Positions 24,172 to 32,053 of a stretch of DNA of 35,738 nt are shown here, piece after piece. Positions within the stretch are counted from its first letter, which is position 1. Each line of letters starts with the position of its first letter. The notes under the pieces were generated by a model. The model was given only the letters and a program-made list of their open reading frames with translations, had not been told where the DNA came from and ran no database searches. Origin of the DNA: a virus (taxonomy: Duplodnaviria; Heunggongvirae; Uroviricota; Caudoviricetes); IMG/VR virus record IMGVR_UViG_2778261460_000003; one strand, 5' to 3'. The position numbers were made by a program, and so were the translations under genes.

Positions 24172-26376
24172 TTACGTGTCGAGAGAAATTTGTGTGCGCA
24201 GTTGAATAGGATTCAGAATTGTATATCGCTGGCGAATAACATTATATAAATCAAAGTCTTTTACCCTTACGCTTATTACCATCGCATATTGCATATCAGG
24301 GGCTGAAACTCCCTTAACATGGCGCGAAGAATCTCGGGCATGATACCGTATATCAAAAACTGGATCGCTTAATAATGTATCAGCACTGAACTTTTTGCTT
24401 CTGTGCAAACAAGTTTCCCACTTATGACCTTCACTCCTACACTCCCTTTCAGTCTTATACTGGCTTTTTTGACCAAAGAAATCATCTGTATCGGTATCGT
24501 CAAGGCCGAATCTTGGGCGGAAAGTTACCTGCATACCGGCCCTTGTATAGTTTACTGAATGTTCAGGATCTACTGGGGTTTGAATGCATAAAGTAGCGGT
24601 AAGCTCAAATGCTTCGTCAAAGGGAACATCAGGGAATGGGATCGGTGCCCTTAAATATTTATTTTTTGCTAATGAACCATAGTAAATTACTGTAGCAGTA
24701 TCATTTGGACAATCGATTAAAACGTTAGGATCCTCACTAAACCGTCCCCAACCGATATGTTCACGCGAATATTTTCTTGATGTTTCAGCATGATGAACAA
24801 GCAACGCTTTCAATGCAATGGTGTTCAATGGAGTTCCTGATAGAGCCGCAACTCCAGCGGCCGTTCTCAATGCTAATGGAGAGGCATAACTGGTTCCTTG
24901 AACTCCAACTATAGAACCAAGCAGAGGGTTGTAAGTGTAAAAAGGCTCGTCGTCGCTTCCACCAAAAATAACACCATCAGGTTTAACGAATCCGGGGCTT
25001 CTGCCTGGCCCAATACAGCTATATGGTGCCCGCCCCCATTTTTCACCGCTACGATCAGCAGCACCAATCGCTAGCGCGTTTACCATATCGGAAGGAGGTT
25101 GTATTCTCGCTGCATCACCGTCCTCATTGCCATCATTCCCAACAGCAACAGTAAGTAATATCCCATGCTTAGCACAGATTTGGTCTAAAACAGCAGTCCA
25201 TACATGAACCTCATCATCACCAATTGGAAGATGAGGACCAATACTTAGATTAGCGAACTTATAGTCACCACTATCAAGAACGGACTGTATTTTCTTAAGG
25301 ACATCAAATAAATCCCAATTGCCATTGTCACCTGATGTCGGTGAAAGAACTCTATAATGATCTACATTCATAAACGGTCTTTTAAAAGAAGGTGCATTTT
25401 CCTCGACACGTCCGAATAAGAAAGTGGATGTCACTTCATTACCGTGCTGCAATAATAATCCGCTTGTTTCTTTGGTGTCTGGATACACGTATTCCGTAAC
25501 CCAATTACTCAAGTCAGCTGTCCCCAAGCCACCATCAAAAATGGCAATACGTTCGGATTCAAGAACAGCTTTAGAATTAGGGAGCTCCGGTGTAACTATA
25601 TTAGATAACTTTCTGACAATGTTCGGCTGAGTACACCTGAGAGACGGCATCGGCCGCACAACGCGGATTAATGAAAAATCGAGTGTTTTTTTCATATCTT
25701 CAGGTCGCGCGTGTGCAACGATGAAAGTCAGCCCACCAACTTGGATTCTACTTTTGTAATCAACAGAGACATCATATTGTGCCGCATAGCTAATATAGGC
25801 TTTAACGATATCATCGTCTTCAACCCCAGCATGAAGAACCACTTCAAATTTTATCAAATCACTTTTCGCATGCTCAAAATTGCGTGCTCTCTCTTTTCCT
25901 TCAAAAAAGCTAACACTTTCAATTTCGATCAAATCCTTTTGTACGCCCTTCGGAGCTGTAGGGGAATTTAAAATTTCCTTAAATCTTATAACGGCATCAT
26001 CATCACCGCTAACAAACAGTTGCGCCGTTACTAAGTCCTTATTCTGATCGCACTGACGTGCCGCTTTCCGTGGGCGAATGATTACCTGACGGCTACCGAC
26101 ATCCCGTAAACCTGTCGCTCTAAGCAATCCTTCCGGAAAGTAGCTTTTACCCAAAAACGCTGGGTGTAAAGTTAAATTGAATACACTCTCCCCCCTTGGC
26201 TTAGCCGCATCATCCAAACTGCGAAAGCGTGAGAGTAAAGTATCAATCTCTGGGTTTAAATGCTCCCTTACTTCTTCAAGAGTATAGGGATAGCGCTTAC
26301 CATCCCTTCCTTTAGGCAAAGGTTCCTTTTTTGTCAGAACATGACCGTTACCTAAAAGTAAGTTCCTTTCCATCAT
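24172..26376 (-). CDS. Subtilisin-like serine peptidase (S8 family) with N- and C-terminal extensions, 734 aa
   Basis: Motifs IAIFDGGLG (Asp), LLQHGNEV (His), VAVGNDGNEDG (oxyanion Asn), GTSYASPLALRTAAG (Ser); AT-rich; 4-nt overlap with the upstream ATPase gene. Confidence 0.8.
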   Translation of the reverse strand: MMERNLLLGNGHVLTKKEPLPKGRDGKRYPYTLEEVREHLNPEIDTLLSRFRSLDDAAKPRGESVFNLTLHPAFLGKSYFPEGLLRATGLRDVGSRQVIIRPRKAARQCDQNKDLVTAQLFVSGDDDAVIRFKEILNSPTAPKGVQKDLIEIESVSFFEGKERARNFEHAKSDLIKFEVVLHAGVEDDDIVKAYISYAAQYDVSVDYKSRIQVGGLTFIVAHARPEDMKKTLDFSLIRVVRPMPSLRCTQPNIVRKLSNIVTPELPNSKAVLESERIAIFDGGLGTADLSNWVTEYVYPDTKETSGLLLQHGNEVTSTFLFGRVEENAPSFKRPFMNVDHYRVLSPTSGDNGNWDLFDVLKKIQSVLDSGDYKFANLSIGPHLPIGDDEVHVWTAVLDQICAKHGILLTVAVGNDGNEDGDAARIQPPSDMVNALAIGAADRSGEKWGRAPYSCIGPGRSPGFVKPDGVIFGGSDDEPFYTYNPLLGSIVGVQGTSYASPLALRTAAGVAALSGTPLNTIALKALLVHHAETSRKYSREHIGWGRFSEDPNVLIDCPNDTATVIYYGSLAKNKYLRAPIPFPDVPFDEAFELTATLCIQTPVDPEHSVNYTRAGMQVTFRPRFGLDDTDTDDFFGQKSQYKTERECRSEGHKWETCLHRSKKFSADTLLSDPVFDIRYHARDSSRHVKGVSAPDMQYAMVISVRVKDFDLYNVIRQRYTILNPIQLRTQISLDT

Positions 26377-27455
26377 TTAATCCCCCACTTTTGTAATTTA
26401 TTCGCGATTGTTGGATGTGAAACACCAACTAATTCAGCTATCTTCCTATTTGAAAAACCGTCAAAATGATATTTAATTATATTGAGATCATTATCGCTAA
26501 ACTCATCCAATGAAACCCTCTCCGTAATTACGGCTTCTATTAATGAGCTTTCAAATGGAATATTTCTAAGTACCTCATTCTTTTTGGAGAAATTCAAAAT
26601 ACGGTTAATGATGGCAAAGGACATGCCATCTAATAATGGTGCAAGTTTTTTAGATAGTTCAGGTTCAATATTATGATTGACTAAATATCTATCTATCAGT
26701 TCTACTGATGGCATATTAAATTTAAGGATGTGCTCAAATCGACGCCAAACAGCCGGATCTAAGATATCAGGGTGATTAGTCGCAGCAACAAGAAGCGAGG
26801 TCGCTGGCCACTCATCTATGGTCTGTAGGAGTACAGTAACTAAACGTTTTAATTCTCCAACGTCCCTGTCATCATCACGTCTTTTTGCAACAGCATCAAA
26901 TTCATCAAGCAAAAGGACACATGGTTTCTCTTTGGCATAATCCATAACGGATTTAATATTATTACCTGTTTTTCCCAAAAGAGAACTCATTACAGATGAG
27001 AGATCCAATGTTAAAAGAGGTAAATTTAACTTTGCAGCAAGCCAATGTGCGGACATTGTTTTGCCTACGCCTGGCGGGCCAGAAAGTAAAACCGTCTTCA
27101 CAGGTTCAAGACCAGCTTTGAACAAAGAAACCGCATTCTCTCTTTCGTTAACAATTGACTCCAGCTTCTTTGAGATATCCGTATTCCATACAGGTTCTTC
27201 AACAATTGCGTTGACAGATGTTTCCTGCAAAAGGTTTCGTCTGGAGTCTCCATCCACAGGCATAGGAGCCTTACTAGATGCCCCACGTAATACTGTTCCC
27301 TCAGCAACTAACGAAGCCAGCTTAGAAGCTAAAGCCTCATCATTTTTACGGATGTTGTTAATCATCTTTCTGCATAGGAGTGTAAATGCATTTGCGTTGC
27401 CTTTGATGCCTTGCTCGATGAGTTTGAAAAGTTCATCCTCCCTCACGTTTACCAT
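26373..27455 (-). CDS. AAA+ ATPase with C-terminal HTH-like region, 360 aa
   Basis: Walker A GPPGVGKT, Walker B VLLLDEFD; C-terminal NRKIAELVGVSHPTIANKLQKWG resembles an HTH; AT-rich. Confidence 0.8.
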   Translation of the reverse strand: MVNVREDELFKLIEQGIKGNANAFTLLCRKMINNIRKNDEALASKLASLVAEGTVLRGASSKAPMPVDGDSRRNLLQETSVNAIVEEPVWNTDISKKLESIVNERENAVSLFKAGLEPVKTVLLSGPPGVGKTMSAHWLAAKLNLPLLTLDLSSVMSSLLGKTGNNIKSVMDYAKEKPCVLLLDEFDAVAKRRDDDRDVGELKRLVTVLLQTIDEWPATSLLVAATNHPDILDPAVWRRFEHILKFNMPSVELIDRYLVNHNIEPELSKKLAPLLDGMSFAIINRILNFSKKNEVLRNIPFESSLIEAVITERVSLDEFSDNDLNIIKYHFDGFSNRKIAELVGVSHPTIANKLQKWGIK

Positions 27456-27759
27456 AAAACCCCCAATAAAACATCAGCTTGTGTAAGCTGGTAACTACAT
27501 TAATGAAAATCATTGACTAATGTTACCACTCTTGCTGGCGTAATTCAAAGAGTATCCTCACTTTTTTACTGTATGGATAATCAGCATAAAATCTATCCAG
27601 TTGGGTTACTCGAACATACTGTCAATACTTGTTTCCAACGATTGATCAGTTCTACAGTTTTATCTCCTTCACTTGTGTTGGCAGCATGCTTATTCCTGAA
27701 CCAGCTCGATTACTTGGCCATTTGAGAAAGATGTGTAGATCTTCTGATGGTTTGTATTG

Positions 27760-27791
27760 GAACGGGGTGCATAGTGATTTGCACCCCGTTC
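27760..27791. other. Strong GC-rich hairpin (12-bp perfect stem) between the ParR-like and ATPase genes
   Basis: GAACGGGGTGCA-tagtgatt-TGCACCCCGTTC, followed by TTTATGTTAT on the plus strand. Confidence 0.5.
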
Positions 27792-27833
27792 TTTATGTTA
27801 TGGGATTGGTGGCAGGGCGAATACGCCCTGATG

Positions 27834-28145
27834 TTATTCAGGAAATAACGCCCGGATATTTCCGGCCATCTGACTGGTTATCTGTGCGGTTGATACTGGC
27901 TGTGACGCGGGGCGTTCTGTCCTGGTTTGTGTCACTGATAACACCTCATCATCAGCCCATGCAGCCAGTCGGTAAGCCTCTGCCGGATTCATTTTCAGAA
28001 GTGCCAGCCCGGCCAGAAAAGCCACGCGTTGGCCGCTTTTGCGGGCTTCTGGTGTAAGGCTGTCCAGCCAGGCGCATGCTTCTCCTTCGTTCTTGACGGC
28101 GGTGGGCTTCAGATAGAAACTTATCCGTCTGGTTGGAGTCGTCAT
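27834..28145 (-). CDS. parR: ParR-like centromere-binding adaptor protein
   Basis: RRISFYLKP...LDSLTPEARKSGQRVAFLAGLAL...RALFPE parallels my recollection of R1 ParR (RRTIAFKLNP...LDSIPQGERS...ALTAGLAL...RSLFPKE); directly downstream of the ParM-like gene. Confidence 0.6.
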   Translation of the reverse strand: MTTPTRRISFYLKPTAVKNEGEACAWLDSLTPEARKSGQRVAFLAGLALLKMNPAEAYRLAAWADDEVLSVTQTRTERPASQPVSTAQITSQMAGNIRALFPE

Positions 28146-28149
28146 TGGT

Positions 28150-29109
28150 TTACTCCTTGTCCATTGCGTACAGCCCATTAACCAGAGCAAACTGTGGCAC
28201 CCCGTCCGCGATGAAAGTCGCATTAACTCCGCAGGCTTCGCGGATAGCGGGTGCCACAATCTCCGCCCCTCCACCGACAACCATCACCCGCCCGTAACCC
28301 GAAAAAACCGCCAGCGCGCGGATCACGCGTTGTTTCAGTGTTTCTTCCTTTTCACGAATAACCGCCATCAGGCTGGCGTAATGCGCGTCATTGTGGATGT
28401 GCTGGCGCAGCCAGGCTTCATCATGGCGATGTTCGATAATGGTATTGGCGATGTGGTGACTGGTGCGCATACCGTTAGTGGCCATCACCGACAGTACTGC
28501 ATCGGCCATCAGAGAAACGCCTACGTGTGGATCGCAAAACACCTGGCTGATACCTGCCAGTTGCCCCTGAACCTTTGCCACATCCAGCGTGGTTCCGCCC
28601 AAATCCACAATCAGCAGGGATTCAAACGGACTCATGTCAGCCAGTGCCTTAAAGCCAGCCGGAATGGATTCAGGCATAACCCGCACGTTACGGATAGTGA
28701 ATGCCTCACCGTTCTGGTACTCCACCGGGCGCATAACGTTCGCTTTTTTGCGGTTGATGTTGGCCATGTCCGGCTGGGCGTTAGTGTCGAAATATTCGCT
28801 CAGTGGCAGGGTGACAACCACATCCACTTCCTGTGGCGTGATGCCTGATTTGACCAGCGCGTGATGAATGGCAATGACATTCACATCGCTGTACTGGTAT
28901 TGCGTGTCGGTCGTCTGGACAAAGCGATCGCTGACCGGATCAAAACCATAGCGCACGCCATCAAGCATGTAGTTCGCAGGCTGCGAGCCACCGAACGGCG
29001 CAGACCATTCCGACTTGAAGCTGTTCGGGCTGATGGCGTTGCGGCGTTCGCCGTTTTCAGTCCATGCCAGCTTGATGTTGGTGGAGCCGTCGTCGATACA
29101 AATTTTCAT
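28150..29109 (-). CDS. parM: ParM/StbA-like actin-fold segregation ATPase
   Basis: N-terminus MKICIDDGSTNIKLAW...ISPNSFKSEW...YSDVNVIAIHHAL closely parallels ParM of plasmid R1 (MLVFIDDGSTNIKLQW...) as I recall it. Confidence 0.75.
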   Translation of the reverse strand: MKICIDDGSTNIKLAWTENGERRNAISPNSFKSEWSAPFGGSQPANYMLDGVRYGFDPVSDRFVQTTDTQYQYSDVNVIAIHHALVKSGITPQEVDVVVTLPLSEYFDTNAQPDMANINRKKANVMRPVEYQNGEAFTIRNVRVMPESIPAGFKALADMSPFESLLIVDLGGTTLDVAKVQGQLAGISQVFCDPHVGVSLMADAVLSVMATNGMRTSHHIANTIIEHRHDEAWLRQHIHNDAHYASLMAVIREKEETLKQRVIRALAVFSGYGRVMVVGGGAEIVAPAIREACGVNATFIADGVPQFALVNGLYAMDKE

Positions 29110-29140
29110 GTCGATTTTCCTTATGTTGGTTAATTAACCG

Positions 29141-29252
29141 TTTACGGGATTTTTAAATCCCGCTTTCGCCTGTTTTGTGCGCGCTTCATATATCGCGGCG
29201 TGTTTTTTGCTCATTTGCGGGATTTGTGAATCCCGTTTCTGTCTGTTTTTTG
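29141..29252. repeat. Two approx. 38-bp direct repeats, each with a CGGGATTT-N-AATCCCG palindrome (candidate ParR-binding / parC-like sites)
   Basis: 29141-29179 and 29214-29252 share about 31 of 38 positions, 73 bp apart; one lies between A and parM, the other inside the 3' end of A. Confidence 0.4.
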
Positions 29253-32053
29253 TTGCCACTGGTCAGGCTACCCCGCAGCAGGTCTGCTTTGCGGCGGGCG
29301 CGTTCAGTGGTTTCACTGATTCTCTGTGCGTGCTCTGCGTCACGAATGGCGCGCAGCATGTCAGAAAGCACGGTAACGGGTGTTTTCATGGTGTTCTGGT
29401 CCTGCTGAAGTGTGGATGCCAGGCGTGCGGCGGCTTCGGGGTCTGATGCCCCGAGCTGTGCCAGATAGCTGGCGACCGGGTTATGGCGGATCTCCGTGCT
29501 GCTTACGCCGTGATTACGGCTCAGGCGCTGCCAGAGCTGCGTGATTCGGCTGTCCGGGCGGGTATCCGGTTTGCGTACAATTTCAAATCCCTGCGGTGCA
29601 ATGATGCTGCCGTCAACGTACAGGCTGCCGCCCCGTAACAGGTGCTGCATCTGCTGTTCACCGATATGCAGGCCGAGAGATTCGGCAGACTCCCGCCATT
29701 CTTTAGCGAGTAATTCGTGGTTATCAGGCAAAGGCTGTGGCTGTTTGCGGCTCTGTGTCCAGTTCTGCATTTCATCACTGCTGTTTTTGGCCTGTTTGTC
29801 ACGCAGCGAACGCATCAGTGCCCGGCGTTCGTGCCGTTTCAGTGAGCGCATCCATTCATTCACTTCAATGCCGTCAGGGAGCTGCGGCCACGGTGCTGGC
29901 CGTTCTTCCGGCTGTTCTGTCCCGTTGTTGTCCGTTTCCTGTACACGGGGACAGTTATTGCCACGAGTCCAAGGGGCGGCAGGGCCGCCCTGAAGGTCAA
30001 AACCATTTTCGCGGGTGCTGTCCTCCGCTTCCGGTTTACGTCTTACCAGCTTCCAGTTATCCGGATGCGTGCACACACGGGAGGATTCCCCGATGAATGG
30101 CGACCAGATCCCGTAAATCTGTACACTCTGTTCGCCGTAATCGTTCAGCTCATCTGCGAGGTCGTAGGCTGTGCGAATCAGGTAGTCCTTGCGCGGAACA
30201 AGTACGCCACCCTGTTTTTCAATGTAGGTGGCAAAACACCCGGCATCAGCGGCAGCAAGAACCGCATCCATTGCGTCATCCTTCAGCCGTTGCGGGCCTT
30301 CCGGGTTGCGTGCCATCTGGCTGGCAAGGCGGCGGAGTTCACGCCACACCTGACGGGAGGGGATGCCAAAGAACTGGAACTGGCGGACCCGGTGAAGGCG
30401 CGCCCAGCCGATGGCGCGCTCCACGCTCTCGGCCATTGATTTACCTGTTTCGTGGTCAACGCGTGGCTTGCCCGTTTTCGGGTCGATGCCATCCACGGCG
30501 CGGCTGTCCAGGTTCTTTCCGATGTAGGTGGCGATGTAGCTGGTTGGCGTGCCTTTTGAGCCGTCGACGTACTCCGCCTTAAAGCGTGGGGTAATATCAT
30601 CACCCAGCTCGTGACGATCTTCCTGAATGGCAATATCGCGGGTGTGGGACACAATGGTGTCGATTTCTTCCGGATGAGCAAAGACCATCATATGCCAGTG
30701 CACGGTGCCGTCATGGTGAGGCTCTACCGTGCGGATGCCATACCAGCGCAGGCCGTCGCGGTTCAGTTTCTTGCGGACCGCTGCAAAAAACGTGTTAACC
30801 AGGTAATCGCTGGAGTCGCGCATGGTGGCCCCGTTCCATTTGGGATTCGGATGACCGTTCTCTGTTGTGGCGTGGTATTTTGACGGGCAGGTGACAGTCA
30901 GAAACACCGCTTTGTCGCCACGGGCTTCGGCCAGAAGTTCCAGCCCCTTCATGGTGGCCATCATTTCTGCCTTACGGTGAACCGGGTTACTTACTCCCGC
31001 GTAATACACTGTCTCGAGAGCAATCGTGAATCCGTCTTCGTTTTCCAGCATGAAACTTTTCAGGAAATCGCGTGTTTTCTCGCGCTGCGCGCGAAACTCG
31101 CTTAATGCGTCCTGACTCAGATAGGGCGATGTTTTTCTGGAAACCAGACAGGCGGCGCGGAGTTGTTCTTCCCGCCACTCGCAACGTAACAGCCACAGTT
31201 TGCGTTTCCACCATTCCGCACAGGTCAGGCGAAGGATTGCGCCCGGCAGCAGCTCCGTGTCCGGTTCGTTCCTCCGGTCTTTGTCTGTTGTCAGTGCGTC
31301 ATAATGTGGAGGCATGGCGTGCAGGTGTAACGCCATGCGGGCCAGCATCTGATACGCCTTCAGCGTTACATCCATGGTCAGCTCGCCATCAGTCGCGCCA
31401 AAGCTATCGCAGAGTTTTTCGAAGGTGCTGCTGAACATCGCCGCCGTCATGGTGGCCAGCGTCTGTATCTGGTGTTTGTTGAGCTGCGGCAGGTAAAGCA
31501 AATCGTCCAGGCGTTCGCGTCCGGTAAGGGAGCGATAACCCGGTGTCAGCCAGCGGTGATCGGTGCGTTCCAGGCGTTCGAATATTTTGCGCAGGTTTCC
31601 GCGCGCGTAGCGTTCAGCCTGCCAGCTCTTTTTGCCTTTCTGACGATCGGATTCCTGTTTTTTGCGCAGGAAAGAGAGGTGGCGGCTCAGAGGTTCACGC
31701 AGATAAACGGGAAGCACTTTCAGTGTGGCAAAAGCACGGGCCACCGGGTCTTGTTCTGTTGCCTGACGCTTGCTGATGATGCTTTGTGCCAGCTTTTCAC
31801 GCTGTCCGGCTTCCTCAAGGGATGCCATGAGTTTTTTACCCACGGTGGATTGTGCGAAAAATGCTTCCTCCTTCGCTTCCTGTTCTTCCAGGGCCTTTTT
31901 GTCTGCCTCAAGGTAGTAACGGATGGCGCGTTGCAGGTCGGTTTCAGTTTCCTGCCTGTGCTCCGTAAATCTGGCCGGATCAATGGCTGGTCGTGGTTCA
32001 TTCCAGCTCCATGCAAACTCACTCATGGCTGGTATCCCGTCACGCGCTGCCAC
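29186..32053 (-). CDS. A: Replication initiation endonuclease gpA (rolling-circle HUH family)
   Basis: HWHMMVF (HUH-like) and TSYIATYIGK (Y-x3-Y twin-tyrosine) motifs as in P2 A; start codon uncertain (32053 or 32026). Confidence 0.85.
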   Translation of the reverse strand: MAARDGIPAMSEFAWSWNEPRPAIDPARFTEHRQETETDLQRAIRYYLEADKKALEEQEAKEEAFFAQSTVGKKLMASLEEAGQREKLAQSIISKRQATEQDPVARAFATLKVLPVYLREPLSRHLSFLRKKQESDRQKGKKSWQAERYARGNLRKIFERLERTDHRWLTPGYRSLTGRERLDDLLYLPQLNKHQIQTLATMTAAMFSSTFEKLCDSFGATDGELTMDVTLKAYQMLARMALHLHAMPPHYDALTTDKDRRNEPDTELLPGAILRLTCAEWWKRKLWLLRCEWREEQLRAACLVSRKTSPYLSQDALSEFRAQREKTRDFLKSFMLENEDGFTIALETVYYAGVSNPVHRKAEMMATMKGLELLAEARGDKAVFLTVTCPSKYHATTENGHPNPKWNGATMRDSSDYLVNTFFAAVRKKLNRDGLRWYGIRTVEPHHDGTVHWHMMVFAHPEEIDTIVSHTRDIAIQEDRHELGDDITPRFKAEYVDGSKGTPTSYIATYIGKNLDSRAVDGIDPKTGKPRVDHETGKSMAESVERAIGWARLHRVRQFQFFGIPSRQVWRELRRLASQMARNPEGPQRLKDDAMDAVLAAADAGCFATYIEKQGGVLVPRKDYLIRTAYDLADELNDYGEQSVQIYGIWSPFIGESSRVCTHPDNWKLVRRKPEAEDSTRENGFDLQGGPAAPWTRGNNCPRVQETDNNGTEQPEERPAPWPQLPDGIEVNEWMRSLKRHERRALMRSLRDKQAKNSSDEMQNWTQSRKQPQPLPDNHELLAKEWRESAESLGLHIGEQQMQHLLRGGSLYVDGSIIAPQGFEIVRKPDTRPDSRITQLWQRLSRNHGVSSTEIRHNPVASYLAQLGASDPEAAARLASTLQQDQNTMKTPVTVLSDMLRAIRDAEHAQRISETTERARRKADLLRGSLTSGNKKQTETGFTNPANEQKTRRDI

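Follow-up and report, generated by a model that had tools for sequence, protein, structure and literature searches.

The window (the whole stretch of viral DNA that was analysed, 35,738 nucleotides) is a complete P88-like prophage of E. coli (Xuanwuvirus, P2 family), 95-97% identical to phage P88, to Xuanwuvirus phages and to Citrobacter phage PhiSM. The 2.5-kb stretch of it that was tested is 100% identical to E. coli chromosomes, and the prophage adjoins pheA, between integrase and tail genes. As judged from protein family profiles, the gene for the replication endonuclease (gene A) is followed on the minus strand by a genuine type II parM-parR pair (Table 1). The profile of the ParR family matches ParR of plasmid pB171 (PDB 2JD3, E = 5.3e-18), a structure that only the family profile reached, a PDB search with the single ParR sequence having returned nothing meaningful. 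An N-terminal RRISFY strand and a C-terminal N-x3-LF motif are invariant across the phage and plasmid homologues of ParR. Mechanical reading of the parR frame yields a longer ORF (27834-28280, minus strand) of 148 residues, which begins with a TTG 45 codons further 5' and overlaps the end of parM; we place the start at the ATG of the 103-residue protein (28145), which is backed by RefSeq and by the alignment of homologues. Both parM and parR had already been annotated in P88-like phages and prophages, and our literature search returned such annotations only, with no study of the parMR cassette or of its cis site.

Downstream (3') of parR lie the IetA/IetS defence pair and then the portal and terminase genes. 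The defence pair (24172-27455, minus strand) consists of an AAA ATPase of 360 residues and an S8 peptidase of 734 residues that match the IetA and IetS models at E = 4e-89 and 7e-41, respectively; it fills a variable cargo slot between parR and the portal gene, and different genes occupy this slot in other prophages. Two strong G+C-rich hairpins (27759-27792 and 27813-27830, with 13 and 7 pairs, respectively) lie just past the parR stop codon and have T-rich tails on the plus strand only, as if they stopped transcription from the portal/terminase side rather than ended the parMR transcript.

Table 1. Genes and sequence features of the A-parM-parR region, in window coordinates.
Feature	Position	Strand	Remarks
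Gene A, P2-type replication endonuclease	29186..32053	-	Pfam Phage_GPA, E = 1e-130; stop codon 29186-29188
C-terminal ~22 residues of the gene A product (KKQTETGFTNPANEQKTRRDI)			encoded by the leading edge of the parMR cassette
R2, distal repeat	29214..29252	-	coding strand CAAAAAACAGACAGAAA-CGGGATTCACAAATCCCG-CAAA; in the last codons of gene A; repeat family D1
R2 as left edge of the parMR cassette	29214..29252	-	boundary mapped with loci L005, L006 and L058
R2 palindrome, CGGGATT-N4-AATCCCG	29218..29235
R2 conserved core, GGG-N10-CCC	29219..29234	.	columns invariant in E. coli, Hafnia and Plesiomonas
Spacer between R2 and R1	29180..29213	-	contains the stop codon of gene A; sequence variable, length kept
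R1, proximal repeat	29141..29179	-	coding strand CACAAAACAGGCGAAAG-CGGGATTTAAAAATCCCG-TAAA; A-parM intergenic; repeat family D1
R1 palindrome, CGGGATT-N4-AATCCCG	29145..29162
R1 conserved core, GGG-N10-CCC	29146..29161	.
parM leader	29110..29140	-	TTAATTAA / ATTAATCAA box 29130-29137; AAGGA ribosome-binding site 29118-29122
parM, actin-like segregation ATPase, 319 aa	28150..29109	-	Pfam StbA_N, E = 2.1e-82; ParM C-terminal domain, E = 6.3e-69; both full length
parR, ribbon-helix-helix adaptor, 103 aa, presumed repeat binder	27834..28145	-	Plasmid_stab_B (PF10784), E = 7.7e-24

A repeat finder run over the window returned a family of two direct copies, R1 and R2, that are 79% identical and start 73 bp apart, and that end 32 nt ahead of the parM ATG. 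An earlier note on this DNA had described two such copies, each with a palindrome, the first in the A-parM intergenic region and the second inside the last codons of A; the stop codon of A and the start of parM confirm this layout, the repeat sequences given there agree with the copies found, and only the length needs adjusting, from 38 to 39 nt. The palindrome CGGGATT-N4-AATCCCG is matched four times in the window when counted strand by strand, against 0.35 expected, and none of 100 shuffles reached four. The search for further copies that the earlier note had proposed, run over the whole 35.7 kb, tolerated up to three mismatches and still found the palindrome in R1 and R2 and nowhere else. 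The weaker core GGG-N10-CCC occurs eight times in the window, R1 and R2 being the only pair 70-75 bp apart.

Conservation of the repeat cores

ParM of the window is at least 92% identical to its counterparts in the E. coli phage clade and 52.6% identical to the nearest plasmid ParM. Intermediate ParMs (54-62% identical) are encoded by P2-like prophages of Hafnia, Plesiomonas, Serratia and Enterobacter, those of Hafnia and Plesiomonas being 62% identical to the protein of the window. The gene order in these prophages is A, parM, parR, followed by ogr and the portal gene, which puts the cassette in the same place. A single-protein scan of genome contigs for such intermediate relatives gave close relatives only; among viral contigs, the Hafnia protein as query had no match and the Plesiomonas protein had a single relative, at 53%. 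Scanning metagenomes for relatives yielded mostly E. coli-type or plasmid-type loci.

We aligned the 155 nt 5' of parM across E. coli, Hafnia and Plesiomonas in an ungapped register. The only conserved blocks in this three-clade alignment are the two GGG-N10-CCC cores with a CCC-R-n-AAA-y-G flank, the ATTAATCAA box and the ribosome-binding site. Counted from the parM ATG, the cores lie at -125 and -52 in the E. coli prophage of the window, at -128 and -55 in Hafnia and at -131 and -59 in Plesiomonas, giving spacings of 73, 73 and 72 bp, respectively; the background density of GGG-N10-CCC is 0.2-0.55 per kb. Plesiomonas has a 26-nt direct repeat of its own, with copies 81% identical and 72 bp apart, the distal one again in the last codons of A. 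The two copies within a genome are 60-80% alike, as opposed to 47-60% for orthologous copies compared between clades. The TTAATTAA / ATTAATCAA box, aligned in loci L009 and L012, lies about 10 nt 3' of the proximal core and is kept despite diverged flanks; it does not fit a sigma-70 -10 element.

Within E. coli, we sampled 135 loci of this type, which fall into 52 distinct haplotypes. About 132 of the loci have two copies of the repeat and two have a single hybrid copy, as would result if recombination between the copies had removed one 73-bp unit. In these single-hybrid variants (the viral contig L025 and one other locus), A reads on to ...KKQTKTGFKNPVTD. The copies are spaced by 73 bp in all haplotypes but two (72 and 74 bp), and what is preserved across the 52 haplotypes is the palindrome arms and the spacing, in contrast to the variable loops and spacer, the last of these alternating between GCGATATAT and CATAAAACAT at unchanged length. 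Nucleotide diversity (pi) is 0.023 in the A-rich arm of R2, 0.030 in the palindrome arms of R1 and 0.034 in the parM leader, and these are the only parts that fall below synonymous diversity, which we gauged from third codon positions in parM (0.049) and in A (0.091). The spacer (0.080) and the R1 loop (0.25) are more variable, and with values of 0.054-0.089 for the repeats the region taken together shows no clear excess of conservation over synonymous sites. Constraint within E. coli is modest and local, a signal too weak to stand alone. Some changes have occurred in parallel in both copies (CAGGATT twice in L058, position 14 altered in both copies in L054), and an asymmetric T-to-C change in R2 is found in 17 of the 52 haplotypes. 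Two allele groups of ParR among the 135 loci share the same palindromes. The window itself (29125-29262) carries a minority allele, present at an identity of at least 99% in 16 of 1304 E. coli records, most of which are 90-95% identical; a common difference is an R1 loop that reads TCAG, not TAAA.

These patterns bear on the possibility, to which we give little credence, that the palindromes act as RNA, either as stem-loops in the A-parMR transcript (with roles in stability, processing or translational coupling) or as antisense terminators on the plus strand. Each E. coli palindrome folds to -9 to -11 kcal/mol (z of about -4), the 171-nt region is more stably folded than its shuffles whichever strand is taken (z = -4.9 and -3.7), and on the plus strand T-rich tails follow both hairpins, that of R2 being flagged as terminator-like. 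However, no plus-strand gene or promoter feeds these antisense sites, and on the coding strand the hairpins run into CAAATGAG and TAAACGGT, neither of which is a U-tract. Not one of the 14 pairs shows a compensatory change among the 52 haplotypes, pairing is no better than in shuffles, and 17 of the 52 break a pair in R2. In Hafnia and Plesiomonas, the sites amount to stems of 3-4 bp with 10-nt loops (-3.3 to -4.9 kcal/mol), terminator prediction finds nothing between parM and the ORF before it, and a search of Rfam gave no match at E <= 1. Since hairpin strength is not conserved, compensatory changes are absent and the coding strand has no U-tract, the terminator and RNA readings are weak. 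The idea of A-operon terminators, raised in the earlier note, is not supported either, on the same points: there is no T-run on the coding strand, and only R2 in the antisense direction resembles a terminator. It is the GGG/CCC ends and the distance between them that are kept, a pattern indicative of a feature at the level of DNA.

A hidden iteron array or DNA curvature was also considered and rejected. A 10.5-bp periodicity of A-tracts, which would be compatible with wrapping of the DNA, is only nominal in E. coli, being equalled by 10 of 500 shuffles; the other clades do not show it, the plasmid parC controls gave weak signals (33, 107 and 391 of 500 shuffles), and we make no use of it as evidence.

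Linkage of the repeats to parMR

Of 5426 complete E. coli genomes, 1303 (24%) contain the repeat region, which is carried by an integrating phage and not by one that lives as a plasmid. Among the matches listed, it lies at the end of the replication endonuclease gene in every case. The A-parM junction was found in 1287 E. coli genomes and the P88-type A gene in 1355 (each at a coverage of at least 80%). An entire P88-like genome is entered as a 'plasmid' in one complete E. coli assembly (L103, NZ_CP148288.1, a circle of 34,461 bp with integrase, cox, A, parM, parR and structural genes). Sequencing may have captured the phage DNA after excision or during replication, or the circle may be a true episome; it fits a transient or carried episomal form and is no proof of one. 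A contig labelled Vagococcus sp., a Gram-positive organism, contains an E. coli-type prophage region with a ParM 98% identical to that of the window (L003, NZ_JBQPOM010000071.1) and is probably the result of assembly contamination or mislabelling.

P88-type prophages that lack parMR mark the edge of the cassette. In two of them (L005 and L006), A matches the window up to about 29272-29300 and then runs into different short tails without repeats; A genes of this kind diverge 20-50 nt 5' of R2 and are missing the cassette-encoded tail. Conversely, in L058 the A gene encodes 871 residues, and a separate, unrelated ORF of 155 residues is joined exactly at the A-rich start of R2, gaining the same peptide tail, KQTKTGFTNPVNEQKTRSDI. 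This extra ORF (L058:3457-3924) is cysteine-rich (MIKYCRQCGREL...), lies between A and parM, reads into R2 and is unrelated to the 167-residue ORF found at the same place in Hafnia. Because the upstream ORF reads into the cassette in these comparisons, we take the final ~22 residues of A to be cassette sequence. The first 40 bp of the cassette double as the last codons of any upstream ORF, and a tail encoded in this way explains why the annotated C-terminus of the replication endonuclease varies from prophage to prophage. We conclude from the comparison of these loci that the repeats are part of the parMR cassette and not of A.

In the Serratia/Enterobacter clade, the GGG-N10-CCC pair is missing, and the cassette carries one long inverted repeat, GGGAACGAtATAGAAAAAT ... 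ATTTTTCTgTTTCgTTCCC, which starts with CGGGAAC and whose arms contain the ATTTTTCT motif typical of plasmid parC iterons. Elements of this type, too, accompany parMR when its neighbours change, as in L102, where the gene before them encodes a methyltransferase.

The same loci weigh on a further explanation, namely that the protein bound by the repeats is not ParR (it might be a phage regulator or a nucleoid protein of the host), or that the repeats serve A as an origin or termination signal. The P2 origin lies inside gene A, palindromes near the 3' end of the gene for a rolling-circle initiator could be origin-like, and the conserved ATTAATCAA box beside R1 is otherwise left unexplained. Yet P88-type A genes without parMR are also without the repeats, the repeats of L058 are attached to a different upstream ORF, the equivalent element of L102 has gone with parMR to a methyltransferase gene, and the prophage holds no other copy. 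That the repeats travel with parMR argues against an origin or a signal specific to A, and we consider this explanation improbable.

We regard a functionless duplication scar or a coding repeat as very unlikely. Read in one relative frame, the two copies give KKQTETGFTNPAN as the last residues of A and TKQAKAGFKNPVN in an ORF of 26 residues (29134-29214, minus strand); their distance of 73 (3 x 24 + 1) agrees with the offset between the frames of A and of this small ORF, and the natural single-copy variants resemble deletions between repeats. Yet of nine differences between the copies, six are non-synonymous; no ribosome-binding site precedes the small ORF, whose frame is shifted in L029 and L074 by single-base indels in the A-run; and the proximal copy in Plesiomonas has a stop codon in the corresponding frame. 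Nor would a neutral scar account for two cores that hold their place and distance in three clades with diverged flanks. A peptide repeat or a frameshift was rejected on the coding evidence among these points.

A candidate two-site parC

ParMRC is the textbook actin-like machine of plasmid segregation, its centromere being an iteron array around a ParR ring, with the promoter inside. In type II systems, parC is positioned immediately upstream of parM and consists of tandem repeats that either adjoin one another or are divided by the promoter, each iteron binding one ParR dimer (PMC5016525). The phage locus has a ParM ATPase, a ParR that is encoded directly 3' of parM and has a C-terminal tail, and a repeated site immediately 5' of parM; it has neither a tandem array of 10-20-bp iterons, there being two long units only, nor a promoter within parC. 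We favour the reading, at a probability of roughly 0.6, that the two repeats are the cis-acting site (parC) bound by ParR of a phage-borne type II ParMRC cassette. The earlier note had offered ParR-binding, parC-like sites as one option, and this is the reading best supported by the sequences: by the linkage of the repeats to the cassette, by the position and spacing of the cores in two other phage clades, and by a ParR of the true pB171/R1 type. Also in its favour are the likeness of the two copies within a genome, the parallel changes in L058 and L054, the arms and spacing preserved within E. coli, and the Serratia/Enterobacter element that accompanies parMR. Against it count the departure from characterised parC sites, the limited conservation of the region within E. 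coli, the asymmetric change in R2, the two single-copy variants, the missing core pair of the Serratia/Enterobacter clade and the A-tract periodicity, which is nominal only.

The companion suggestion of an operator finds no support, there being no sigma-70-like promoter in or near the repeats in three clades. We scanned 27700-29700 and the equivalent regions of Plesiomonas and Hafnia for the sigma-70 consensus and found no promoter (weak or non-sigma-70 promoters are beyond the reach of such a scan), while the same scan, as a positive control, picked out TTTACA-17-AATAAT (10 of 12 matches) in the parC of pOXA-48. Because neither a promoter nor a coding-strand terminator lies between A and parM, parMR is probably transcribed by read-through from the early operon.

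Based on this organization, we propose that each GGG-N10-CCC core (CGGGATT-N4-AATCCCG in E. coli) would bind the ribbon-helix-helix ParR, the half-sites within a core being about one helical turn apart. A distance of 72-73 bp is about seven turns, which would place both cores on the same face of the helix, and ParR bound at both could bridge the interval or wrap it into one complex. The clustered C-terminal tails of ParR, with their N-x3-LF motif, may then capture the growing ends of ParM filaments. Because parMR is probably expressed with the early operon, the expected substrate of the system would be phage circles that have been excised or are replicating, following infection or induction, and not a resident plasmid. 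New here is a candidate parC, recognised from sequence, that has two sites and no promoter, is partly embedded in an ORF and belongs to an integrating phage.

If the repeats are the ParR site, they would constitute a minimal two-site centromere and could inform how many ParR dimers the end of a ParM filament needs; they would also illustrate how a partition cassette can plug in behind a replication gene, dispense with a promoter of its own and overwrite the C-terminus of the protein encoded upstream. A more far-reaching and rather doubtful proposal is that the cassette is a stripped-down ParMRC, expressed solely with the early lytic operon, whose two-site centromere lacks a promoter and is joined to the 3' end of the gene before it, and whose filaments move or separate replicating phage circles. 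P88-like and other P2-family phages integrate and replicate by an A-dependent rolling circle, so that under this proposal there is no plasmid lifestyle to protect, and the filaments would act during infection, induction or the establishment of lysogeny. Were it true, a small and very common E. coli prophage would possess a phage cytoskeleton function, and two ParR sites seven helical turns apart would suffice for a working type II centromere.

Comparison with known partition systems

Among the closest known systems is parC of R1 and pB171, which shares with the phage locus the order cis site, parM, parR, homologous ParM and ParR proteins, and repeats directly 5' of parM. In R1, the repeats also form two blocks split by a spacer, as 5 + 5 iterons (PMC5016525). 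There are also differences: where the plasmids have ten 11-bp iterons, the phage site has two 39-nt units with a dyad core of 16-18 bp; its spacer contains no promoter, whereas the plasmid relatives have a clear one; its distal block lies inside coding sequence; and the replicon is an integrating phage whose nearest plasmid ParM is about 52% identical. The plasmid relatives that we inspected (pOXA-48, IncI1, Pantoea and metagenomic) have many short T-rich iterons flanking a clear sigma-70 promoter. The earlier note had remarked that two long repeats are unlike the many short iterons of R1; this is correct and constitutes the main point of novelty. More generally, characterised parC sites comprise 4-10 tandem iterons of 10-20 bp with an embedded promoter, in contrast to the two long, promoter-less repeats of the phage.

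Longer units are known from the staphylococcal plasmid pSK41, in which contiguous 20-bp repeats are bound by ribbon-helix-helix ParR dimers that wrap the DNA (PMC5016525). The pSK41 site is, however, a tandem array, unlike the two phage units 73 bp apart, and the ParM and ParR sequences of pSK41 are unrelated to those of the phage.

Two systems of integrated elements offer functional parallels and precedents for sites with few repeats. In srpMRC of the SXT/R391 elements, srpC consists of four 13-bp repeats bound by SrpR, and the system stabilises the excised element (PMC4489591). Like the phage cassette it is ParMRC-like and resides in a chromosomally integrated element, and it acts on the excised circular form. 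No similarity to ParR can be recognised in SrpR, in contrast to the phage protein, a true PF10784 ParR; the element is conjugative and not a phage; and binding and stabilisation are experimental for srpMRC and sequence-inferred for the phage site. In the CGP3 prophage of Corynebacterium glutamicum, AlpA binds the alpS repeats, and AlpAC is needed for efficient phage replication after induction (PMC4446434). CGP3 differs from the phage studied here in its distant actin-like family, its reversed gene order (alpA then alpC), its 24 short TTAAnnG repeats and its Gram-positive host. The two have in common an integrated prophage, an actin-like filament protein and a DNA-binding adaptor, known in CGP3 and proposed here, that recognises repeats at its own operon, and by this analogy AlpAC is a plausible model for the role of ParMR in a P2-like phage.
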